Origin: Rickettsiales bacterium
Lineage (GTDB): Bacteria > Pseudomonadota > Alphaproteobacteria > Rickettsiales > UBA998
DNA: 64,000 bases
Direction: 5' to 3'
NCBI GenBank assembly: GCA_965248995.1
Contig: CBDFKY010000022.1
Location: 15,996 to 79,995 of the forward strand
The position numbers were made by a program, and so were the translations under genes. This document shows positions 2,125-53,802 of the stretch, one piece after another (position 1 is the stretch's first letter; each line of letters starts with the position of its first letter). Below the pieces are notes generated by a model. It saw only the letters and a list, made by a program, of their open reading frames with translations, was not told where the DNA came from and did no database searches.

Positions 2125-5100
2125 ATGAACCGCAACGCCCTCACTTTTTTCTCCGCCGCCACGTTTTCGACGTTCGCGCTGCTCTCCACCTCAGCCCTCG
2201 CCGCCGGTAAGATCGGCGTGGTCAGCGCGGCCGATCCTTCGGTGCGTATTCTCGGCGTGGACGGCAAGGAACGGCAGGTGAAGCTCGGCGACGGCATTTT
2301 CGCGGACGATACGGTCAAGACCGATGGCAAAGGCAAGGCGCAGCTGGTGTTCGAAGACCGTTCCACCGTGACGGTCAACGAGAATTCGGAACTGAAGATC
2401 GACCATTTCATCTATAATCCCGCCACCGACACCGGCGAGATGGGGATGAAAACGGTGAAAGGTGCGTTCCGCTTCATCGGCGGCGCGCTCTCCAAGCAGC
2501 ATCCGGTGACGATCCAGACCCCGGTGGCGACCATCGGAATCAGGGGCGGGATCGTTGATACGCACGTGGAAGCGAACGGCCGGACGGACGCCGTGTTCGT
2601 CTACGGCAGGGAAATGACCATGACCAACGCGGCGGGCAACCGTTTTTCTACGACGCAGTATGGCACGGGCCTCAGTCTGGCCGATGCGCGGGCGATCCCG
2701 GCTCCGCTTCCGGTCTCGGCGGTGCAGGCCAGCCTGAGCGAATTCGCGCATACCGCTTCCGCAGGCGGCGGCGCTCCGGTGACGCCGACGCCGCAGTCGG
2801 TAGCGCCACAGATGAAGCTGGGTACGGAGGGAAGATCGCCGGAACCGCTTGCCGTTCCTGCTCCCGCGGCGGCCAACGGTCCCGTCGGCGGTGCCGTCAA
2901 TGCGGCGGCGCTTGCCAATCCCGTCCCGGTAACGGCTGCCACCTCTGCCGTGAACAACGCACCGGCTGTCCAGACCGCCGTCCAGCCTAATGCGGCCCAG
3001 CCTAATGCGGCCCAGCCTTCCGCCCCCATCCTGTTCGTCGAAGGAAATTCGGTTTCCGCGCTGGATATCGCCGCCCTCAGCACCAATCTTGCCACGCAAC
3101 AGAAAGACGGCACGACACAGACGGCGGCGACCGCTCCCGAAAAACTGCGCGCCCTGGTGGACGCCCGCAATCTGCAGACGCAGGTCTTGGCGAATGACGG
3201 GTTGAAAAACTTTTTAAGAGATGCCGTATCCGTTCCGGTTCCCGTTTCCGCTGCAGCAACAGGCACCACGCCGACGTTACCGCGTTCCACCCTCCCGGCG
3301 GCAAACCTGCCCACCGTTATTCCGACAGCTAACATTCCGGTCGCGGCAACAGGCGGGGCCGGAGCGGGAGCCGGCAGCGGGGCGGGACTGGCGGAAAATT
3401 TCACCGCGGTGAGCGGGCGCACGGGAAAATTCCTTGTTCTTTCCGATACCAACAGCGACGGCTTCCTCGACGTGGCCAACCAGGGCGATGTCAACATCAC
3501 GCAGGAATCCCCCGATAAATACCGGATTTCCTTCACCTCCACGCTGGCCACCCCGCTTGCGACGCGTAACATCATTGTTCCTAAGCTCACGAGCGCCGGC
3601 GTAACCGATACGACGGCGAACGTCGTGGAGAACGGCGTGATCGGCAGCCGTCATGTGGAAGGGTACCGCACGCAGGGCGGAGCGATGGAAGCATACCATC
3701 TGGAAGATACCGCCGCATCGCTCAGCGATTCCAGCAAGGAAATCAATTTCGTGGTCGGCAGCAATATTTTCGACAATAGTGGCACGTTCGTCGACGCTGC
3801 GGCGCGATCCGTCACCGCCGCCAACAGCGGCAGCGTGCACGGTGCGGCGACCAACGGCGTCCTGCTTTATGATTTCCTCCCGGAAGTCGGGGAAGGCAAC
3901 GGCAACCAGTTCGGCAATTTCAACTATAACCGGGCGAGCGGCATCAACGATACGGACGCCGCCCCGCAATCGCAACAGACGGAATTCGGCACGGCGATCG
4001 ACTGGAAAACGGGCAAGGCCGGAAACCTGTTCAGCGGCCAGGTGAACTGGCTGCCGGTCGGCGGCAAGTCGAGCGCCACGGGTGCGTTCGGCAAGGCGAA
4101 CGCCGCTCCCAGTGCCATCAACGATTATAACATCGCAGGCAAGCGCCTCGCTTATACCGCTGAGGCGGCGGGCACTTCCACGGGCGGTTCGGGCAGCCTG
4201 AAAGGCGACGCGTTCGCGGTGAACGGCGCGGTCTTCGGAAATGTGAACGGTCCGGTGGAAGGCGCCATGGTGAATTACCTGACGCCTACCAATAAAACGA
4301 GCGTGGCTTCCACGGCACAGACCCAGCTGGGACTGACCGGCGGGGCCGTCGCCAACCGGGGAACGCAGGCGATCGCGCTGAAAGGGAACATCAGCGGCGA
4401 CCTCGCCACACAGGTCGCCAATCCGAGCAGCGTCGGCAACCATACCGGCTTTGCTTCGGGAGTGATGATGGTGCATAACGGTACCAATTACACCCCCACC
4501 ATTTTCAGCAATAACGTCAATACGGACGTGGCCCTGACGCCCGCTGCGGGAGGAGTGGTCGGCGGTTCCATCGCGGTGCAGGATTATAATACCAACGGCA
4601 GCGGCGGCGGAGGATACAACACGACGACCACCAGTTTCTCCAATCCCAACAACAGCGTCTATATCAACAACCGGCTATACGCGGCGCAGTCCGGCAGCAC
4701 CACGCATGCCAACAGCCAGACCTTCGATTCCGGCGGCACGACCGGCGCCAATGCCGCGCAGGCGTTCATCGTCAGCGGCGGCGCGGTGAACAACGCCAAA
4801 TCCGGCCTGTCCGGAGGCTATAAATGCGACGACTGCCAGTTCGTCAACTGGGGCGTCTGGTCCGGTGACGTGGGGGAACGCGTCGCCGGCAGCGGTCATG
4901 ATGACTACGCCGCCATGATTCCCTATGTCGTCGGGCAGGTGACCCAGAACGCCTCCCTGCTGGCGCCTCATAGCGCCAATTATAAGGGAGAGGCCTATGC
5001 GACGGTGGTGAAATCGGGCATCAACCCGCAGAACGTTGCCGGAACGATGGATGCGACGGTGAATTATGTGACCGGCCTCCCTCCGCAGTTGAACAACCTC

Positions 5101-5352
5101 AATCTGAATTTCGGAACGGTCCAGGGATCGGACCTGAACCTCCGTAATAACGGCACGGCTGCGGTCGCTCCTTCTGGCGACGCCACCTACAGCGTGCCGC
5201 TGGTCAGCAGCGGCACTCCGGCGGATATCGCCGGCAAGGCGAACGGTGCGCTGTATGGTGCCGCAGCCACGGAAATCGGTGGTAATTACACGTTCAACCG
5301 GACGACTGACAACCTGAACGGCGGCGGGATCTATTTCGGGAAGCAGCGTTAG
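2125..5352 (+). CDS. Large secreted protein with an N-terminal FecR-like domain, a low-complexity Ala/Pro/Thr/Gly-rich middle and a C-terminal TbpB-like beta-barrel
   Basis: Signal peptide (FALLSTSALAAGK). FecR-like block (RILGVDGKERQVKLGDGIFADDTVKTDGKGKAQLVFEDRSTVTVNENSELKIDHF). The C-terminus (CDDCQFVNWGVWSG...YKGEAYATV...GKANGALYGAAATEIGGNYTF...GGGIYFGKQR) resembles the C-terminal barrel of transferrin-binding-protein-B-like surface proteins. Confidence 0.75.
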   Translation: MNRNALTFFSAATFSTFALLSTSALAAGKIGVVSAADPSVRILGVDGKERQVKLGDGIFADDTVKTDGKGKAQLVFEDRSTVTVNENSELKIDHFIYNPATDTGEMGMKTVKGAFRFIGGALSKQHPVTIQTPVATIGIRGGIVDTHVEANGRTDAVFVYGREMTMTNAAGNRFSTTQYGTGLSLADARAIPAPLPVSAVQASLSEFAHTASAGGGAPVTPTPQSVAPQMKLGTEGRSPEPLAVPAPAAANGPVGGAVNAAALANPVPVTAATSAVNNAPAVQTAVQPNAAQPNAAQPSAPILFVEGNSVSALDIAALSTNLATQQKDGTTQTAATAPEKLRALVDARNLQTQVLANDGLKNFLRDAVSVPVPVSAAATGTTPTLPRSTLPAANLPTVIPTANIPVAATGGAGAGAGSGAGLAENFTAVSGRTGKFLVLSDTNSDGFLDVANQGDVNITQESPDKYRISFTSTLATPLATRNIIVPKLTSAGVTDTTANVVENGVIGSRHVEGYRTQGGAMEAYHLEDTAASLSDSSKEINFVVGSNIFDNSGTFVDAAARSVTAANSGSVHGAATNGVLLYDFLPEVGEGNGNQFGNFNYNRASGINDTDAAPQSQQTEFGTAIDWKTGKAGNLFSGQVNWLPVGGKSSATGAFGKANAAPSAINDYNIAGKRLAYTAEAAGTSTGGSGSLKGDAFAVNGAVFGNVNGPVEGAMVNYLTPTNKTSVASTAQTQLGLTGGAVANRGTQAIALKGNISGDLATQVANPSSVGNHTGFASGVMMVHNGTNYTPTIFSNNVNTDVALTPAAGGVVGGSIAVQDYNTNGSGGGGYNTTTTSFSNPNNSVYINNRLYAAQSGSTTHANSQTFDSGGTTGANAAQAFIVSGGAVNNAKSGLSGGYKCDDCQFVNWGVWSGDVGERVAGSGHDDYAAMIPYVVGQVTQNASLLAPHSANYKGEAYATVVKSGINPQNVAGTMDATVNYVTGLPPQLNNLNLNFGTVQGSDLNLRNNGTAAVAPSGDATYSVPLVSSGTPADIAGKANGALYGAAATEIGGNYTFNRTTDNLNGGGIYFGKQR
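2983..3018 (+). repeat. 15-bp in-frame tandem repeat (CAGCCTAATGCGGCC, two copies plus a 6-bp partial copy) inside the FecR-domain gene
   Basis: Read directly: cagcctaatgcggcc cagcctaatgcggcc cagcct, encoding QPNAAQPNAAQP. Confidence 0.85.
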
Positions 5353-5386
5353 CGGTAAACTGTTGCTCCAATTTTAAAAAAAGACC

Positions 5387-5490
5387 GTCATAAACCCTTC
5401 ATATTCCCCCTGTACTCAATGTGCTGATTTATGCATTCATTGATTCGGGGGGTGTCCATGAAGAAATTGTTCGCAAGCCCGCTCTGCTCT
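5387..5490 (+). repeat. About 100-bp duplicated promoter/5'-end segment; partner copy at 5941-6042
   Basis: The two segments are colinear and about 80% identical by eye. Compare gtcataaacccttcatattcc...gtgctgatttatgcattcattgattcggggggtgtccATGaagaaattg...gctctgctct with gtcataaaaccttcacattcg...gtgctaatttgttcattcattgattttgaggtatccATGaagaaatttt...gctctgctct. Confidence 0.75.
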
Positions 5491-5610
5491 AATGCAGCGC
5501 AGGCAAACTGGGAGCTTGAAAGTTATTGTTTTAGTGGAAAAAAACCATTGAGCTTCTGGACGGCTGATCCTCCGCAGACTCTACCATTATGCGCTATACT
5601 TCCACTATAG
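5458..5610 (+). pseudogene. Remnant ORF: duplicated 5' end of the 6010-6555 secreted-protein gene, terminated inside repeat element copy 1
   Basis: MKKLFASPLCS... matches MKKFFVGLLCS... of the intact gene only over about 12 codons. The TAG stop at 5608-5610 lies within the first bases of the 117-bp element. Confidence 0.4.
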
Positions 5611-5722
5611 TCATTCCGATTAAAAACCGTACGGTTTTTGTTGGATAAAATGACTATAACCATATATTTTATAGTGTTTTTATCCGAAAATTTCCGTACG
5701 GAAATTATTCGGAAACACTATA
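5606..5722. repeat. 117-bp double-hairpin MITE-like element, copy 1
   Basis: About 92% identical to 9488-9604. It is built from two extended imperfect palindromes (tatagtcatt...aatgactata and tatagtgttt...aaacactata, each enclosing a ccg-tacgg-centred hairpin). Termini are TATAGT...ACTATA. Confidence 0.8.
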
Positions 5723-5727
5723 ACGAT

Positions 5728-5928
5728 GTGTATATTCGAAATAAAATCATCACTATCCCCATGATTTATGATATCGCCCTGTTTCAACAAAAATACGGTG
5801 CGAAGTTCGAGGGGGCAAGCGGGCATGACGTGATCGATGCCAGCAAGGCGATTTCCGGGGCGATCGACCTGCGTGACAGGTTCAATGCCGACAACAAGCT
5901 GCATTTCTCCGGAGTCGGGGGAAAAGTA
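5728..5928 (+). pseudogene. Internal fragment of a second serralysin-like metalloprotease paralog
   Basis: The translation VYIRNKIITIPMIYDIALFQQKYGAKFEGASGHDVIDASKAISGAIDLRDRFNADNKLHFSGVGGKV parallels residues of the 6552-9245 protein (MYVQNKILTTPMVYDIALLQQKYGAHFDG...GASGHDVIDASSAISATIDLRDGFNPDNTPHFSRVGGEV). It lacks the HExxH region, the N-terminus and the RTX part. Confidence 0.7.
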
Positions 5929-6009
5929 CGCTCTTGCGATGTCATAAAACCTTCACATTCGCCTTTCTTGAGCGTGCTAATTTGTTCATTCATTGATTTT
6001 GAGGTATCC

Positions 6010-6555
6010 ATGAAGAAATTTTTTGTAGGCCTGCTCTGCTCTGCATTGCTTTGCTCTGGCGCGGCGAAGGCATATCATCCATTGGAAGTAGGTTGTACCG
6101 TGGAAGAAAAATCAGGTGCGTACTGGGTGAACAATTCTTCAAGAGTAGATACGATTTTTATAGGAAAAGTTATTAGTGTGGATGCAACCGTCATGGATTG
6201 GCCGGAGGATGGTTCGTGCTGGGGAAATTTCTCCGTTTTGGAAGTGTTGAAAGGTAATATAGGCAAAAGGATTTCTGTTAAAATTGCTTATGATCCTGCT
6301 GAAAAAGCGAAAAAAAGAATTAATCCGGAGGGACTGAAGACGGTGGATTACTGCCCATTTGCCTATGGAAAAACTTACGTGGTATATGGACTGCATATAA
6401 AAGATTCACCAGATGTCGGTATGAATGACTGGATAGTAAGCAATTCCAATGCAGGAAACTCGCATTTCAACTGTGCGCCCACCAAAGAAATTCGAGATTC
6501 CGAAACATCCAAAACAAGCGGTAAGATTCGAAATCTGTTAAAGAAAGGAAAATGA
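6010..6555 (+). CDS. Small secreted protein with a TIMP/NTR-like OB-fold pattern; candidate cognate protease inhibitor
   Basis: Signal peptide MKKFFVGLLCSALLCSGAAKA. The stop overlaps the protease start (aaATGAccatg, with the ATG at 6552 and the TGA at 6553-6555). The pattern GC-x(17)-VDTIFIGKVISV...FSVLEVLKGNIGKRISVKI...DYCPFAYGKTYVVYGLH...HFNCAP resembles TIMP/netrin-module proteins. Confidence 0.7.
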   Translation: MKKFFVGLLCSALLCSGAAKAYHPLEVGCTVEEKSGAYWVNNSSRVDTIFIGKVISVDATVMDWPEDGSCWGNFSVLEVLKGNIGKRISVKIAYDPAEKAKKRINPEGLKTVDYCPFAYGKTYVVYGLHIKDSPDVGMNDWIVSNSNAGNSHFNCAPTKEIRDSETSKTSGKIRNLLKKGK

Positions 6556-9245
6556 CCATGTTACCTTACCAAACAGATATTGATTCCCAGCAGAAATGGA
6601 CAACCAGAAACGCGGATAATAACGTTGAACCCGTTTATTACACGTTCAGTTCAACCTACAATACTTCAGACTTCAAACAGGATTTATCAGACAATCATAC
6701 GGCCATCTCCGGCAACGGTGATTCCGCCAAATGGATGATGGCGATGAGCGCAGTCATGGATGTATCCAACATAACTTTCGCCGCTGCGTCTTCTCCTACG
6801 ACGGCGCAACTCGGATTACTTAGTGCAACGATTACCGATCCCAAATTTGCCGGTTACGGATGGAGTTATCCTGACCCCGTTCCAACCATTACTTCAGGCC
6901 TTGCGGTTATTGAAGGTACGCAAAACAGCACTCTCTATATTCATGAACTGTTGCATACGCTTGGGATGGATCATCCGGGCCATGGGCTAGGTGATGCTCC
7001 CGCCTTCGCTCAATACACGGCGGATGCGACAATCATGCGGTACACTTCAACTAACGATATGTATGTTCAAAATAAAATACTCACCACCCCCATGGTCTAT
7101 GACATAGCCTTGCTCCAGCAGAAATACGGCGCACATTTCGACGGGGCAGCCGCAAATATCATAAATACCATCCCCATTGGCGGAACGCAGAACATCGCAC
7201 ATACCTTATGGGAAGGTGGAGCCAGCGGGCATGACGTCATCGACGCAAGCAGCGCGATTTCCGCGACGATCGACCTGCGTGATGGATTCAATCCCGACAA
7301 CACGCCGCATTTCTCCAGAGTCGGAGGGGAAGTGTTTGCGCTGGCGCTTGACCCTAAAACCAATTATCAGCATGTCATTACGATTGAGGACGTGATGGGC
7401 GCCGCTTTCGGTGTCAACCATATTTACGGTAATGATGCCGACAACAAACTCACGGGCGGCACGAAAGTCGATACGCTCGAAGGCGGAGCCGGGCATGACA
7501 CCTATATGCTCACGCAGGCCGCTTCCGCCACTTCGCCCGGCGCCAATCAGGCGGATTACGTGATCGACAGCGACGGCGACGGCAGCATCGTCATCAACGG
7601 CGCTCCCCTGGCGGGGCTTGCGCATTATGTCACCAACACATCCGGCGCTACCAGCTGGACGCTCGGCGGCCATACTATCCGGATGGTAGCCGAAAACCAG
7701 ATCGCGATCGACAGCACCAACAAGACGGGTACCATCGCGCTGGTCTCCGACAACAGTTTCGACATGAAATTCCTCGGCATCACGCTCGACGATAAGACCG
7801 ACGGAACGGCAGGCAACGACAGTCTGGGCGGCGGTAAATACGCTGATCTCATTTCCGGTTTCGCCGGGAACGACACGCTGATCGGCAACGGCGGCGACGA
7901 TACGCTGAGCGGCGGGACGGGAGCGGATTCGCTGGTCGGCGGCGCGGGGAACGATGCATATCATTACGCGAAACTCGACGGCGCGGACACGATTTCCGAC
8001 AACGGCTACAACGCCGACGACGATACGCTGACCATCAGCGGTTATGCGTCCGGCGCCGCCAGCTACACGCGGATCGGCAACACCACCGATTTCACCGTTT
8101 CCTTCAGCGGTGGCGGCGGTGATTCCGTGTTGATAAAGCAAGGGTTGCAGGGCGGCAGCAACGCGATTGAACATATCGTCTTCACCAGCGGCGGCGGGGA
8201 GGAGATCGACCAGATCCGCACCGACGTGCTGGCAAAACAGGCGACCGCGGGAAATGACACCATCAACGGGTTTTACGGCGCGGCGAATACCATCGGCGGC
8301 GGTGCGGGCAATGATTCACTAAGCGGCAATTCGCTCACCGATCAACTGCACGGCGACGCAGGCAACGATACCCTGCTCGGCGGCTACGGCAACGACACGC
8401 TGAGCGGCGGCACCGGCGCGGATTTCCTGCAGGGCGGCGGGGGCGACGATCTTTTCCTCTTCGCTAAAGGAGACGGTACGGATACGATCCAGGATTACGG
8501 CAACAGCACCGATCTCGGCGACACGCTTTCCATCACGGGGTATGCGTCCACCGCGGCGCTGTATAGCCGCATCGGCAACAGCGACGATTTTACCGTCTCT
8601 TTTACGGGCGGCACGGATTCCATCACGGTGAAACGCGGACTGGAGGCGGGAGGCAATACGCTGGAGCATATCACCTTCGCAGGCGGCGGCGACAAAACCG
8701 TGGCGCAGCTGCGCACCGAGCTGCTGTTAAAACAAACGACCTCGGGAAACGACGTCATCGTTGGTTTTACGGGCGCGGCCAACGTGATCAGCGGGGCGGC
8801 GGGTAACGATTCCATTACCGGCAGCACGGTCGCGGACGTGCTGCACGGCGACGGCGGCAGGGATACGCTGGTCGGCGGCTATGGTAACGACAGCCTGACC
8901 GGTGGTACCGGAGTGGATATCCTGACCGGCGGCTACAATGCCGACAGCTTCATTTTCATGAAAGGCGATACGGGCGCGGGCGCGAGCGCCGACCATGTCA
9001 CCGACTTCAGCCGCGTACAGAACGACAGGATCGCGCTGCTGGGATACGGGCTCAGCGCCGCGCATTTCGTCGCGGATGCGAGTTTTCACGCGGGCAGTAC
9101 CGCGGAATTCGGCTATACCAAGGTGGCGAGCGGAAACTATACGCTCATCCGCATCGATTCCGATCATAACGGCACGTCCGATCAGGAAATCCGTCTGGAC
9201 GGGATTCAGCTTGACATGCATGTCGGGGATTTCGTCTTCGCTTGA
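6552..9245 (+). CDS. Serralysin-type metzincin metalloprotease with RTX calcium-binding repeats (probable T1SS substrate)
   Basis: HELLHTLGMDHPGH matches HExxHxxGxxH, and there is a Met-turn candidate ADATIMRY. Many GGxGxD nonapeptides are present (GNDTLIGNGGDDTLSGGTGADSLVGGAGND...). The C-terminus is acidic and hydrophobic (...LDMHVGDFVFA), as in T1SS substrates. Confidence 0.85.
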   Translation: MTMLPYQTDIDSQQKWTTRNADNNVEPVYYTFSSTYNTSDFKQDLSDNHTAISGNGDSAKWMMAMSAVMDVSNITFAAASSPTTAQLGLLSATITDPKFAGYGWSYPDPVPTITSGLAVIEGTQNSTLYIHELLHTLGMDHPGHGLGDAPAFAQYTADATIMRYTSTNDMYVQNKILTTPMVYDIALLQQKYGAHFDGAAANIINTIPIGGTQNIAHTLWEGGASGHDVIDASSAISATIDLRDGFNPDNTPHFSRVGGEVFALALDPKTNYQHVITIEDVMGAAFGVNHIYGNDADNKLTGGTKVDTLEGGAGHDTYMLTQAASATSPGANQADYVIDSDGDGSIVINGAPLAGLAHYVTNTSGATSWTLGGHTIRMVAENQIAIDSTNKTGTIALVSDNSFDMKFLGITLDDKTDGTAGNDSLGGGKYADLISGFAGNDTLIGNGGDDTLSGGTGADSLVGGAGNDAYHYAKLDGADTISDNGYNADDDTLTISGYASGAASYTRIGNTTDFTVSFSGGGGDSVLIKQGLQGGSNAIEHIVFTSGGGEEIDQIRTDVLAKQATAGNDTINGFYGAANTIGGGAGNDSLSGNSLTDQLHGDAGNDTLLGGYGNDTLSGGTGADFLQGGGGDDLFLFAKGDGTDTIQDYGNSTDLGDTLSITGYASTAALYSRIGNSDDFTVSFTGGTDSITVKRGLEAGGNTLEHITFAGGGDKTVAQLRTELLLKQTTSGNDVIVGFTGAANVISGAAGNDSITGSTVADVLHGDGGRDTLVGGYGNDSLTGGTGVDILTGGYNADSFIFMKGDTGAGASADHVTDFSRVQNDRIALLGYGLSAAHFVADASFHAGSTAEFGYTKVASGNYTLIRIDSDHNGTSDQEIRLDGIQLDMHVGDFVFA
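8028..8975 (+). repeat. Intragenic tandem duplication of an RTX module (period about 490 bp, two copies) inside the metalloprotease gene
   Basis: The protein blocks DDTLTISGYASGAASYTRIGNTTDFTVSFSGG...LFLFAKGDGTDTI and DTLSITGYASTAALYSRIGNSDDFTVSFTGG...SFIFMKGDTG align colinearly at roughly 60% aa identity by eye. Confidence 0.6.
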
Positions 9246-9254
9246 AACGGATAT

Positions 9255-9470
9255 TTATTCGATCAATAAACCTTTCAAAACTTCAAGTTCATATGATTTT
9301 TTAGCAAAAGAAAGTATTTCTTCATTAATGACTTCATTATGATACTCTTTCATCCATTCAAGTTTCTCAATTATTTTTTTCTGAAGAATTTTTAGAAAAT
9401 CTTTTTTTGATAATATTTTTATGGTTTTGCAAAAAATTGATCCATTCTGAATAACCGTGATCCATTTCAC
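9255..9470 (-). CDS. Small AT-rich ORF; possibly the displaced C-terminal part of the upstream cyclase-like gene
   Basis: 71-aa ORF with helical-looking sequence (KDFLKILQKKIIEKLEWMKEYHNEVINEEILSFAKKSYELEVLKGLL). It is separated from the cyclase-like ORF only by repeat element copy 2. No RBS was checked. Confidence 0.3.
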   Translation of the reverse strand: MKWITVIQNGSIFCKTIKILSKKDFLKILQKKIIEKLEWMKEYHNEVINEEILSFAKKSYELEVLKGLLIE

Positions 9471-9487
9471 CTAAACTAGCTCTAAGA

Positions 9488-9604
9488 TATAGTCATTCCG
9501 ATTAAAAACCGTACGGTTTTAATCGGATAAAATGACTATAACCATATAATTTATAGTGTTTTTAACCGAAAATTTTCGTACGAAAATTATTCGGAAACAC
9601 TATA
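9488..9604. repeat. 117-bp double-hairpin MITE-like element, copy 2
   Basis: Same length and architecture as 5606-5722. It contains the near-perfect palindrome ccgattaaaaaccgtacggttttaatcgg. Its last 18 nt supply the final codons and the TAA stop of ORF 9587-10183. Confidence 0.8.
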
Positions 9605-10183
9605 ATCAATAAACCACACCCCCTTTTTATCTTTTTTTGTAATTTTACTTAAAAGTTCTTTTTCATCTTCCCAAAGATTATTTTCATTCCACAAACGCTT
9701 ATCTTTTCGATATTTTTTGAGTGCTTTCTTACTAATAATGATGCGAGGGTGAATAGCAGAGGTATTTTCAAATATATAAGCTTCAACGAGTGCAGGACCG
9801 AAAATGGGCCCATTCAAATTTCGGCCAACATGCATTTCACCTATTGTTAGAGCGCCTCGAATTAAAATATTTTGCTTTATACATGCTATTTGCAAGTTCA
9901 ATAAAATTAATAGTTCCCATCCAAAAGCTCCTGTAAAACATTCTGTTCCAATGGTTCGAAATCTAACAATAGCGTCTGAGATTATTTCAGATCCCGCAGC
10001 AGTGTAAAGCCTTCGTTCACTAAAACTAGTTTTCGAATCCTTCAGCGTAGGCTTAGAAAAACCTCGAAATCTTTTTAAAATTTCCGCAATTTTTTTAGCT
10101 GATGATGAATCTAATAAATCTTTAAATCCTAAAATATCTATAAACGTGACGATGCATTCTTCATAAGTTGAATCATATTTCAA
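9587..10183 (-). CDS. Class III nucleotidyl cyclase-like (palm-domain) protein, probably truncated by element insertion
   Basis: Motif order matches adenylyl/guanylyl cyclase catalytic domains. IVTFIDILGFKDLL compares with vlFaDivGFT (first metal Asp). SEIISDAIVRF carries the second Asp. IRGALTIGEMHVG compares with lRiGihtGpvvaG. PIFGPALVEAYIFEN compares with dvwGdtVNlAsRlEs. The gene is very AT-rich. It starts at a TTG 12 nt after the purU stop, and its C-terminal codons YSVSE-stop come from the repeat element. Confidence 0.6.
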   Translation of the reverse strand: MKYDSTYEECIVTFIDILGFKDLLDSSSAKKIAEILKRFRGFSKPTLKDSKTSFSERRLYTAAGSEIISDAIVRFRTIGTECFTGAFGWELLILLNLQIACIKQNILIRGALTIGEMHVGRNLNGPIFGPALVEAYIFENTSAIHPRIIISKKALKKYRKDKRLWNENNLWEDEKELLSKITKKDKKGVWFIDYSVSE

Positions 10184-10195
10184 AGTGAGGGCCCG

Positions 10196-11062
10196 TTACT
10201 TGAACACCACCGTCTTATTCCCGTTGAGCAGGACACGATGCTCGGTATGGTAGCGCACGGCGCGGTAGAGCACCATGCTCTCGATCTCCTGTCCGACGCT
10301 GACGAAATCTTCCGGCCTGTAGGTATGGTCGACGCGGGCGACCTCCTGCTCGATGATGGGGCCTTCATCCAGGTCTTCCGTCACGTAATGCGCGGTGGCG
10401 CCGATCAGTTTCACCCCTCGCGTATGCGCCTGATGGTACGGTTTCGCCCCTTTGAAACTCGGCAGGAACGAGTGATGGATATTGATGGCCCTTCCCTCGA
10501 ACGCCGTGCACAGATCCGCGGAGAGTACCTGCATGTAGCGGGCCAGCACGATGACGTCGACCGCGTGGCTCTCTACCAGTTCCAGCAGCCGCTCTTCCTG
10601 CGCCTCCTTTCCCCGTTTGTCGATCGGCAGGTGGTAATACGGAATGTCATACCACGCCACCAGCCGCTGCAGGTCCGGGTGGTTGGAGACGACCAGCGGA
10701 ATCTCCACGTTCAGCGTGCCGCTCTGATACCGGTGCAGCAGCGTGTTCAGGCAGTGGCTGGCTTTGGAGACCATGATCATCACCCGCGGCTTACGCAGGC
10801 CGTCATGCAGGTGGTAGCGCATTTTGAAAGGTGTGCCGACCTCGTCGGCGAACAGTTTCCGCAGAGACGCGTCGTGCGGCGTCTGTTCGGTCGCTGCGAA
10901 ATGAATGCGCTGAAAAAAAGTGGAGGTGGCCGGATCGCCGTACTGGGTGGATTCCAAAATGAATCCCTGCTGGCCAGAAATAAATCCCGAGACGGCGGCG
11001 ACGATTCCCCGCACGTCGGGGCAGGCGATGGTCAGGACATATTCACGGCGGGCTTGGGTCAT
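10196..11062 (-). CDS. purU: Formyltetrahydrofolate deformylase
   Basis: N-terminal ACT-like region followed by a formyltransferase core (INIHHSFLPSFKGAKPYHQAHTRGVKLIGATAHYVTEDLDEGPIIEQ). Length 288 aa is typical. Confidence 0.93.
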   Translation of the reverse strand: MTQARREYVLTIACPDVRGIVAAVSGFISGQQGFILESTQYGDPATSTFFQRIHFAATEQTPHDASLRKLFADEVGTPFKMRYHLHDGLRKPRVMIMVSKASHCLNTLLHRYQSGTLNVEIPLVVSNHPDLQRLVAWYDIPYYHLPIDKRGKEAQEERLLELVESHAVDVIVLARYMQVLSADLCTAFEGRAINIHHSFLPSFKGAKPYHQAHTRGVKLIGATAHYVTEDLDEGPIIEQEVARVDHTYRPEDFVSVGQEIESMVLYRAVRYHTEHRVLLNGNKTVVFK

Positions 11063-11333
11063 GGGATGGTTGTAGAGCGTTGTCGATTATTTGCAAGCGC
11101 GGCGATATTTTCGGGGATATTTATCGCAACATCGTTAACCATAGCCGCGCTTGTAAGCAGGAGTGCCTCTGGTGGAATGGCAGGTAGCCCCGGCGTCAAG
11201 GGATGCCGGAAGCCATCGTCGCCAATCCGGAAGTGCGGCGGGTCTATCCGGGTAACCGGTTCGCGCTCTGATCTGAAACAAATCGTTGCCTGCGCAGCCG
11301 CCTTGGAGTAGGCTCCGCTCCATAACGTCCAGT

Positions 11334-13821: not shown

Positions 13822-14298
13822 CTAAGGTTCGTCAATGATGACGAGGACTCCATCTACAACATCCGCGTTCAGGGCTTCAGACAGTAAGCTCAGGAACCAC
13901 TCACGCGGTTCCAAAAGCTCTACCAGATCCGCGTCCGTTGCAGGGCGACGGGTCAGAATTTCTCCAACCGATTGACCCTCTTCATCGCGGACCTTGATGG
14001 AGCCTAGAACGTGGCGACGTTCCGTAGAAAGATGCTCGACGGGGGTTTCCAACACTAACACTCCCACATCGCTACTAATAGCATAAGAGGGTGCCGCTTG
14101 AAGATCGTCGAGTGGCTGAGCTATGGTCAATCTGGCAACCTCAAGACCAATTAGCTCCAACATAATGGGATAAATGGTGATAAGGTTACCATTTTGAAGA
14201 AGCAATTTCGCATCCCCGATTTCCACGTCATCATCTTCTATCGTAATCGTAACAGGATTAGGCAACAGTTGTTGCTCTTGAGCATCTGGTGTAGACAT
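13822..14298 (-). CDS. Strongly acidic hypothetical protein (158 aa)
   Basis: ORF in a lower-GC segment abutting the IS element. It has about 30 Asp/Glu against about 9 Lys/Arg. No recognisable motif. Confidence 0.5.
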   Translation of the reverse strand: MSTPDAQEQQLLPNPVTITIEDDDVEIGDAKLLLQNGNLITIYPIMLELIGLEVARLTIAQPLDDLQAAPSYAISSDVGVLVLETPVEHLSTERRHVLGSIKVRDEEGQSVGEILTRRPATDADLVELLEPREWFLSLLSEALNADVVDGVLVIIDEP

Positions 14299-14410
14299 AA
14301 GCGAAGTACACAGTAATGGAACATTCTAAAAACGAAGTTTTAGACTTCCAAAATCTCTCAACTAAAATTTATAGTTAATTCAAAATTTACACGGATGATT
14401 GTATTATGTT

Positions 14411-23015: not shown

Positions 23016-23301
23016 GCGTTCAGCCGCCTGCGTTTTTTCATTGTCTGAAGTAGTGGGGCTTTAAAGAGCCGGCAGATTGGGCGGATACTTCCAGTGTTTG
23101 CCAATCCCCTTTTTCAATAGGATTCTGGGAACTATCTTTTGGATCTGCCATGTCTCATTTCCTTCATAAATAAAATATTAAATCTCATAAATGACTATAC
23201 AGATGATTTATGATATATTTATGAATGAGAAAAAAATGATTACTTTTTATTTCATTGCATAGAAAATTGTACTTTATTAGTTTATGGTATAGTTTAAAAA
23301 A

Positions 23302-23934
23302 ATGATCTGTACTTTCTGTCTGCGGCGCTTTACCGCCGCTTCACCGCTGCGGATAGGGCTGCTCGGCGGCTCGTTCAATCCTGCCCATGCAGGACATGTC
23401 CATATCTCTCAGGAAGCATGTAAGCGTCTGGGGCTGGATGCGATATGGTGGATCGTGAGTCCCGCCAATCCGTTGAAAGATCCCGCCACGCTGGCGCCGT
23501 TCGATGTGCGCTGCCGGTATGCGTTGCGGCAGGCGGCTTCCCATGCTCATATCCATGTTTCGGATATGGAGGAACGCTGCGGCATCCGCTATACGGTCGA
23601 CACTCTCAAGCTGATACGCCGCCGCTTCCCGCGGCACCATTTCGTCTGGCTGATGGGGTCGGACAATCTGGCGGGGTTTCATCGCTGGAAGCGCTGGGAA
23701 GAGATCGCCGCCCTGGTCCCCGTCGCGGTGATGGACCGCGGGAGCGCCACCCACCGCGCTTCAAGGATGCGCTTCGCCACGCGCTATGCCGCCCGCCGCC
23801 GCCCGGCGTCAACGCTTGCCGGCGCGGCGCCGCCGGCGTGGAACGTGGTGTTTATCCGCAGACATCCGGAGAGTGCCACGCATTTGCGGAAAATACTTGG
23901 CAACCACGCCTTTTTGGAATATAATAAACAATAG
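23302..23934 (+). CDS. nadD: Nicotinate-nucleotide adenylyltransferase
   Basis: IGLLGGSFNPAHAGHVHIS (the (T/H)xGH motif) and WIVSPANPLK. Followed by rsfS and rlmH, the usual conserved order. Confidence 0.88.
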   Translation: MICTFCLRRFTAASPLRIGLLGGSFNPAHAGHVHISQEACKRLGLDAIWWIVSPANPLKDPATLAPFDVRCRYALRQAASHAHIHVSDMEERCGIRYTVDTLKLIRRRFPRHHFVWLMGSDNLAGFHRWKRWEEIAALVPVAVMDRGSATHRASRMRFATRYAARRRPASTLAGAAPPAWNVVFIRRHPESATHLRKILGNHAFLEYNKQ

Positions 23935-53343: not shown

Positions 53344-53802
53344 CTACGAACGACCATCTCTACCGCTCCGCTCTTGCGATGGTTCTGGAAGAGTTAACAC
53401 ACCTTGTTGTGCTGATTCAACTGCATATCCTATACTTTTATTGAAATTTTTAACAAATTCAGGATCAATTAATTCTGCAGTAGCAGCTTTGGTAATGGCA
53501 TCTTGGAACCGTGTTTTTGTCAATCTTTCATTTGTTGCGTGCCCATGAACTACGATCGTTCGATCATTAGAAGAAATATGGACGGGATCATTTGCTGGAT
53601 AATCTACAGGATATGTGCTTATTCCATCCTTAATTGCTTTTGCAATCTCTTCAGCCACGGCTTTATGACCTGTTTGAATTTCCATGATTACATGTGAATC
53701 TGGAAAACTAATATCGGGTTTAATGGTAACTTTAAGATTATCTATGCCCTTTCTTCCATTATCTAAAATTGCTTCAGCTCCATCAAATTGAGTGCTAGCC
53801 AT
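53344..53802 (-). CDS. Hypothetical protein in an AT-rich islet (152 aa)
   Basis: ORF filling the AT-rich gap between gltX and rlmB. No motif recognised. Confidence 0.45.
   Translation of the reverse strand: MASTQFDGAEAILDNGRKGIDNLKVTIKPDISFPDSHVIMEIQTGHKAVAEEIAKAIKDGISTYPVDYPANDPVHISSNDRTIVVHGHATNERLTKTRFQDAITKAATAELIDPEFVKNFNKSIGYAVESAQQGVLTLPEPSQERSGRDGRS

Follow-up and report, generated by a model that had tools for sequence, protein, structure and literature searches.

What kind of gene fills the AT-rich islet that separates purU from a convergent serralysin/RTX-like gene, and is it a small nucleotide cyclase serving a defence system? The islet (positions 9246 to 10195, not assigned to a strand) lies in a 64,000-nt stretch of DNA from a Rickettsiales bacterium (assembly GCA_965248995.1, contig CBDFKY010000022.1, positions 15,996 to 79,995), which is called the window here. 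An earlier note, made from the sequence alone, had taken a 198-aa open reading frame (ORF) in the islet for a small standalone cyclase with a class III or GGDEF-type palm, and had filed it with the signal generators of Pycsar-type and mCpol systems. We find instead that the islet is foreign DNA holding only a pseudogene and an inserted element. The pseudogene (9255 to 10183, minus strand) is that of a two-domain protein of ∼270 aa, made up of a class III cyclase-homology domain at the N terminus and, at the C terminus, a helical domain specific to its family; the 198-aa ORF is not a ‘small standalone cyclase’, because it is the 5′ fragment of this pseudogene. The overall description that we favour, namely a pseudogene from a mobile, single-gene family with a cyclase fold, is probably correct.

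The islet gene was shown to be broken twice, by a miniature inverted-repeat transposable element (MITE) inserted at a TA within the I-D-Y-L codons, and by a frameshift in a homopolymer downstream. Its 5′ fragment, the 198-aa ORF (9587 to 10183, minus strand), starts with TTG and encodes the full cyclase-like domain and the beginning of the C-terminal domain. After ...WFIDY, the last four codons and the stop (SVSE-stop) are supplied by the inserted element (9488 to 9604), as the earlier note had proposed; a second copy of the element in the window is 94% identical. The 3′ fragment, a 71-aa ORF (9255 to 9470, minus strand), has in its C-terminal part the family motif K-x-x-W-x-x-Y-H-N and the native stop codon. 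Excising 115 bp while keeping one TA restores the ...WFIDYLRASLGEMDHGYSEWINFLQNHKNII... reading frame, and a second correction, of 1 nt, brings in the 71-aa ORF to give a 270-aa protein; both steps had been anticipated in the earlier note. This second lesion (a 1-nt frameshift within 9374 to 9408, minus strand) is not uniquely placed, since the T7 runs of the plus strand at 9374–9380 and 9402–9408 both work: loss of a base from either run yields a product of 270 aa in which ...KLEWMKEYHNEV is joined up again. The proposal of a longer original protein split by the element was thus right as to the splitting, by insertion plus frameshift, and wrong as to the length, which had been put at ∼290 aa. 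Because the gene looks intact apart from the two lesions, its inactivation was probably recent.

The 270-aa reconstruction aligned with the family protein P0001 without gaps over residues 4–249 (51% identity, the best found; E = 3e–88) and with P0003 from end to end, and it retains every family-invariant residue. The 198-aa ORF itself had 232 homologs in a collection of 5.8 billion proteins, all of them unnamed and without Pfam domains, and those listed were mostly 250–316 aa long; the closest (255–316 aa) aligned to 95–98% of the query with their first ∼200 residues. Uninterrupted homologs, which the earlier note had suggested looking for, therefore exist, and those examined do not end at the insertion point. 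With lengths of about 250–310 aa, they read through it as ...IDYLRASLGEL.DGF..W..FL..HK.LI.......RRKY.W...YHNEV. The exact 198-aa protein was not called in any public annotation. A chance ORF was considered and rejected.

As modelled, and as profile comparison indicates, the first ∼175 residues of the family adopt the class III nucleotidyl-cyclase (palm) fold. The AlphaFold2 (AF2) model of P0001 reached a predicted local distance difference test score (pLDDT) of 94.2 and a predicted template-modelling score (pTM) of 0.91, and all of its top 50 Foldseek matches in the PDB were catalytic domains of class III adenylyl or guanylyl cyclases (best E = 7.7e–6, TM score by target 0.55–0.61), the matching part being the N-terminal ∼175 aa. 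The family profile matched the Mycobacterium tuberculosis adenylyl cyclase Rv1625c (E = 5.8e–4, positions 6–165); in this alignment D21 and S74-D75 fall on the two metal-binding Asp of Rv1625c, R114-G115 on the cyclase motif LRVG, and E144 on the Glu of ASRME. The family thus shares with the class III cyclase domain (PF00211; Rv1625c, PDB 1yk9/4p2m) the β-α-α-β-β-α-β palm fold, the F-x-D-I-x-G-F strand with the first metal-binding Asp, the hairpin with the second, the Arg-Gly of β4 and the Glu that ends the following helix. Four motifs that the earlier note had singled out fall on β1, the β2–β3 hairpin, β4 and the helix after it in the modelled fold. Among 247 members, D21, S74, D75, R114, G134, E144, P151 and K240 are conserved at ∼100%, and R152 and W243 at 98%; both metal-binding Asp are present in the window ORF. 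The C-terminal ∼100 residues are helical and, when modelled alone, still gave a pLDDT of 92.9. Taken alone, this domain matched nothing in Pfam, no PDB sequence and no PDB fold (best E = 0.54); it carries the invariant Lys (K240) and the conserved W/Y-H-N motif.

A profile built from 79 members and searched against representatives of 50%-identity clusters found 15,092 family clusters at E ≤ 1e–3, 10,140 at E ≤ 1e–10 and 2,623 at E ≤ 1e–30. Members are nearly all 250–300 aa long, both domains are spanned by nearly all of the best 150 profile matches, and ten of the longest members kept the two-domain core with no extra Pfam domain fused to it. Searches of Pfam, NCBIfam and PADLOC gave no significant model match for either ORF (there were sub-threshold N-terminal matches) or for the 79 members. 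When Guanylate_cyc, GGDEF and mCpol profiles were searched, as the earlier note had recommended, only the first responded, below threshold (13.8 vs. 21.9 bits), and neither GGDEF nor mCpol matched; such sub-threshold Guanylate_cyc matches occurred in 15 of the 79 members. The single library match was PHROG 23933 (E = 8e–24 for P0001 and 5.7e–14 for the window ORF), a phage/prophage family that matches members over their full length but is unannotated and so silent on function. Within the class III cyclase fold the family forms a divergent branch that has added a domain of its own, and it is not recognisable as Guanylate_cyc, GGDEF or mCpol. That is, the class III part of the original palm assignment stood, upheld by Foldseek and by the Rv1625c profile match, and the GGDEF part fell.

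Intact relatives were viewed in context at 20 homolog loci, their neighbourhoods being judged by eye and qualitatively. The family gene is typically monocistronic, its neighbours vary from locus to locus, and at none of the 20 loci did an effector or conserved partner stand beside it; its GC content was below that of its surroundings in 15 of 16 homolog loci. On chromosomes it adjoins SIR2-HerA at one locus, stands beside HEPN_AbiV and SIR2 at another, and has a type I restriction enzyme and an integrase nearby at a third. In Salipiger it rides in Tn7-like cargo, in Sphingomonas it lies beside a WYL regulator and a transposase, and in Jannaschia it lies upstream of a gene with a MazG_C domain; in an Oleispira metagenome-assembled genome (MAG) it has integrase-DUF1403-ScpB upstream and IS110 and AbiJ downstream. 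On one short contig it sits among unannotated genes. In two unrelated genomes (L010, 10352–16792; L099, 3585–14834) it adjoins or lies inside a cluster of DUF1156 (methylase-like), DUF499 (ATPase) and helicase genes, the only neighbourhood met twice outside plasmids. A tblastn search placed the gene on 94 plasmids (Bacillus 31, Acinetobacter 14, rhizobia ∼25). Plasmid copies lay beside RelA/SpoT and PLD-helicase genes (Rhizobium), directly after AbiEi/AbiEii (Ruegeria), next to repABC and integrase-DUF1403-ScpB (Rhizobium and Agrobacterium), or isolated (Bacillus cereus and Acinetobacter). The family spans Proteobacteria and Firmicutes and is found among phage-defence and plasmid-maintenance genes.

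Several further observations concern these loci. The integrase-DUF1403-ScpB-like module recurs near members (L001, 1567–3131; L013, 4981–6594; L014, 8666–10314; L015, 6930–8413), its carriers being repABC plasmids of Rhizobium, Agrobacterium and Ruegeria and the Oleispira MAG; a literature search found no paper mentioning DUF1403 together with ScpB. Damaged copies also occur on plasmids, one with an IS5 transposase inside and one cut to its first 147 residues (H25, NZ_CP031600.1, and H18, NZ_CP031599.1), and an Acinetobacter pittii copy (L097, 5001–5750) is annotated over its 3′ part only. Repeated inactivation could mean that the gene is costly.

In the explanation that we favour, one gene came in by horizontal transfer, settled between the 3′ ends of purU and the serralysin/RTX-like gene, and later died. 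Intact members would be Mg2+-dependent enzymes acting on nucleoside triphosphates (NTPs), by cyclisation, by a related nucleotidyl transfer or by NTP consumption; that family members are active NTP-using enzymes seems to us slightly the better bet. Canonical class III cyclases obtain Lys/Asn-type residues from the dimer partner, and here the C-terminal Lys and the Y-H-N helix would supply such residues in cis, so that the putative role of the C-terminal domain may be to complete the active site. Members are single genes with no fixed partner, carried on plasmids, in Tn7 and integrative and conjugative element (ICE) cargo and in defence islands, and they look like one-gene conflict modules and not like the sensor half of a two-gene signalling system. 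They would act alone, against phages or in competition between elements, and the module in this genome would be non-functional. A genuine one-gene defence role is a tentative suggestion, and so is the wider proposal of a widespread family, present on plasmids, in defence islands and in prophages, of self-contained class III cyclase-like conflict modules whose C-terminal domain replaces both the dimer partner and a Pycsar-type effector; each strikes us as somewhat doubtful.

A number of points weigh against this explanation. The family falls below the Pfam threshold, never reaching the Guanylate_cyc cut-off (12.9–13.8 vs. 21.9 bits), and differs from class III cyclases in leaving the transition-state Asn/Arg pair, and apparently the base-specifying residues, unconserved: the Asn position holds V in 52%, I in 30% and N in only 12%, the Arg position is variable (E in 47%), and the first base-specifying position (71) is Glu in the window protein and in 19% of the family. 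The second base-specifying position falls in a loop, the β4–β5 arm, that is 4–7 residues shorter than in Rv1625c, and the extra C-terminal helical domain of ∼100 aa with its invariant Lys is likewise foreign to those enzymes. Because no conserved base-specifying residue was found, cyclase chemistry is not assured; the biochemical function of every member is a matter of inference. The defence role draws on gene neighbourhood only, at the 20 loci viewed by eye and without statistics. PADLOC gave nothing consistent across the 79 members, tblastn found no family gene in GenBank phages, and a literature search found no description of the family.

Three other explanations were weighed. It is most improbable that the gene generates or once generated the signal of a Pycsar-type or mCpol/Panoptes-type system, namely a cyclic nucleotide by which a dedicated effector is activated or restrained. 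A class III cyclase fold and the presence of both metal-binding Asp would suit such a role, as would the defence-island-like neighbourhoods of homologs, and the window ORF has a weak PADLOC match to PycC (residues 6–39, 34 residues, E = 0.028); yet none of the 79 members matched PycC in PADLOC, and none had an mCpol or GGDEF Pfam match at E ≤ 1. Pycsar-type cyclases are cyclic nucleoside monophosphate (cNMP) cyclases paired with cNMP-binding TIR or transmembrane (TM) effectors (bioRxiv 10.64898/2026.08.12.744502), and the palm of mCpol, of Cas10/GGDEF type, comes in a two-gene operon whose other gene encodes an S-2TMβ or CARF-TM effector (PMC12657218). Panoptes and Pycsar are defined as two-gene operons (PMC12657218; bioRxiv 10.64898/2026.08.12.744502), and no effector of these kinds (cNMP-binding TM/TIR, S-2TMβ or CARF-TM) lies beside the window gene or in the 20 homolog loci. 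With the Pycsar/Pucsar cyclases (PycC, PucC) the family shares being a small bacterial class III-type cyclase found in defence islands and on mobile elements, but it differs in architecture, matches no PycC model significantly and is not paired with an effector. With mCpol/OptS of Panoptes it shares being a small stand-alone palm-domain nucleotide synthase in conflict loci, but its structural neighbours are class III cyclases, and neither Cas10 nor GGDEF appeared among the top 50 PDB matches. A GGDEF, mCpol or Cas10-like assignment was rejected. The filing under Pycsar or mCpol made in the earlier note is therefore not supported, because the homologs are single genes without a conserved partner; in addition, the Asn/Arg pair is missing, and the family has its own C-terminal domain, absent from those cyclases.

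The truncated 198-aa ORF might still work as a minimal cyclase, its translation coupled to the purU stop that lies 12 nt before it. It keeps D21, S74-D75, R114, G134, E144 and P151-R152, the purU stop is in frame with and adjacent to its start, and the 5′ part of the pseudogene has no other lesion. What the ORF lacks are K240 and the W243/Y-H-N helix, conserved in ∼100% of the 247 members; the two-domain core was kept among the longest members checked, and the best 150 profile matches nearly all cover both domains. It begins with TTG, with no ribosome-binding site (RBS) and no promoter enrichment (5 sites vs. 3.9 expected), and its exact protein is in no public annotation; we give a working minimal cyclase very little credence. 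Less far-fetched, and in our view still unlikely, is a cyclase fold used as a non-catalytic nucleotide-binding or scaffold module, or for other chemistry such as nucleotidylation of proteins or nucleic acids, without a cyclic nucleotide product. The missing Asn/Arg pair, the apparent lack of base-specifying residues, the 4–7-residue deletion in the arm that bears the specificity residue in Rv1625c, and the family-specific invariant residues R152 and K240 all speak for it. Against it stands the 100% retention of both metal-binding Asp and of Arg114 (aligned with the Arg of LRVG), which is typical of active palm enzymes and not of pseudo-enzymes. We retain as the preferred explanation a dead copy of a mobile gene whose intact relatives would be NTP-using enzymes acting alone.

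The islet itself is sharply bounded. Between 9246 and ∼10188 GC content is 0.26–0.36, vs. ∼0.60 in the flanks and 57% in the whole window; an abrupt change of composition near the purU stop had already been remarked on and is confirmed. The reconstructed gene has a GC content of 0.31 and a third-codon-position GC content (GC3) of 0.218, as opposed to a GC3 of 0.782 for purU, and it is this difference (0.22 vs. 0.78) that marks the islet as foreign. Its edges lie directly past the stop of the serralysin/RTX-like gene (9243–9245) and ∼8–12 nt from the purU stop (10196–10198), leaving ∼9 nt and ∼12 nt of non-gene flank inside the islet. The foreign DNA was seen to start within ∼10 nt of the purU stop and to end 9 nt past the pseudogene stop, and with such ends the insertion amounts to almost exactly one promoter-less gene. 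On the plus strand, the neighbour ending at 9245 encodes an 897-aa serralysin-like metalloprotease with RTX calcium-binding repeats. On the minus strand, directly upstream of the pseudogene, lies purU, the gene for formyltetrahydrofolate deformylase (10196 to 11062), whose identity as given in the earlier note is secured by TIGR00655 (343 bits, cut-off 286). The purU TAA stop is in frame with the TTG of the pseudogene and precedes it by 12 nt (four codons). The pseudogene can start only at this TTG, and no Shine-Dalgarno-like sequence occurs in the 12 nt before it (CGGGCCCTCACT), in agreement with the earlier reading of a TTG start without a visible RBS; a promoter scan of the islet found 5 sites vs. 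3.9 expected, no enrichment. Expression, if there ever was any, would have relied on purU read-through and translational coupling.

The islet contains no integrase gene and no flanking direct repeats, no tRNA gene was found across the window, an Rfam search of 5000–11200 returned nothing, and nothing that matches the islet at the DNA level was found among plasmids. The reading as an integron cassette was rejected, since apart from the MITE no 3′ structure resembles attC. In 185,579 species-representative genomes the closest purU was 67% identical, from an Alphaproteobacteria MAG, and the next relatives (∼60%) came from a Rickettsiales MAG, Roseomonas and Azospirillum. With the closest purU at 67%, the window must come from a poorly sampled alphaproteobacterial lineage, and its genome has no close relative among the species representatives. 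Other short AT-rich patches (GC 0.25–0.40) occur in the window at 14151–14300, 23051–23250, 35701–35900, 39601–39750 and 53351–53800; at the last of these is a 152-aa ORF (53344–53802, minus strand) without a Pfam match, and the ORFs adjoining two others encode a GNAT acetyltransferase (39105–39689) and a cytidylyltransferase-like protein (23302–23934).

The inserted element is a MITE that duplicates its TA target: it is short and non-coding, has terminal inverted repeats and is present in two copies, and its excision mends two different frames. The copy in the pseudogene (9488 to 9604, no strand assigned) comprises 115 bp plus the duplicated TA target, 117 bp in all. The second copy, also with a TA duplication (5606 to 5722, no strand assigned), lies inside a decayed partial duplicate of the serralysin-like gene; no copies would be expected by chance, and two were found in the window. 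Excision of the second copy restores MRYTSTNDVYIRNKI..., corresponding to MRYTSTNDMYVQNKI of the intact serralysin-like gene; this copy sits in MRYTST|NDVYIRNKI..., and the excised form MRYTSTNDVYIRNKIITIPMIYDIALFQQKYGA parallels residues of the intact 897-aa gene. Two hairpin units of ∼53 bp, both with TATAG...CTATA as their borders, make up the body of the MITE; its arms of 54 nt are 70% complementary, and when folded as single-stranded DNA the element forms two hairpins (–30 kcal/mol, z = –8.3). A small Cys-rich, signal-peptide-like ORF (MKK(L/F)F...LLCS...) has its start and the region before it present twice (5389–5470 and 5945–6020), which suggests that a module of ‘small ORF + serralysin-like gene’ was duplicated in tandem and that its first copy has decayed.

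To our knowledge, neither the origin nor the mobilising enzyme of the Correia elements of Neisseria has been established, and the MITE may bear on both, in that its left end (TATAGTCATTCCGATTAAAAACCGTACGG) resembles their repeat, tatagtggattaacaaaaaccggtacgg (PMC5039591): the alignment score of 12 was equalled by none of 2000 shuffles, and 12 of the 63,966 34-mers of the window scored as well. The right end matched weakly, with 6 to 603 of 2000 shuffles as good. Like Correia elements (CREE/NEMIS), the MITE falls in the range of ∼70–150 bp, is non-coding, has TA at both ends and shows the termini TATAGT...ACTATA; unlike them, it resides in an alphaproteobacterium and not in Neisseria, it has indels relative to the 26–28-bp repeat and a poor right end, and its body consists of two back-to-back hairpins with no Correia core, two copies having been seen. 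Exact 21–25-mers of the MITE were absent from species-representative genomes, IMG/VR viral contigs and JGI metagenomes. We regard the relationship, suggested by sequence likeness, as a lead and not a result; a Correia-like MITE in an alphaproteobacterium would be the second and smaller lead from this locus.

The window copy is dead, and so it matters to the organism only as the mark of a foreign insertion and of an active MITE. What makes it valuable is that it points to a very large family, with a confidently predicted catalytic domain of cyclase type, for which Pfam, NCBIfam and PADLOC have no model. The cyclic-nucleotide immunity systems that we know of so far are all synthase-plus-effector pairs. 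If the family does consist of self-contained conflict modules, it would represent a new use of the cyclase fold in immunity, for example through NTP depletion or through a toxic or diffusible nucleotide product; and if its members are active in defence or in plasmid competition, they would form a one-protein branch of these systems.

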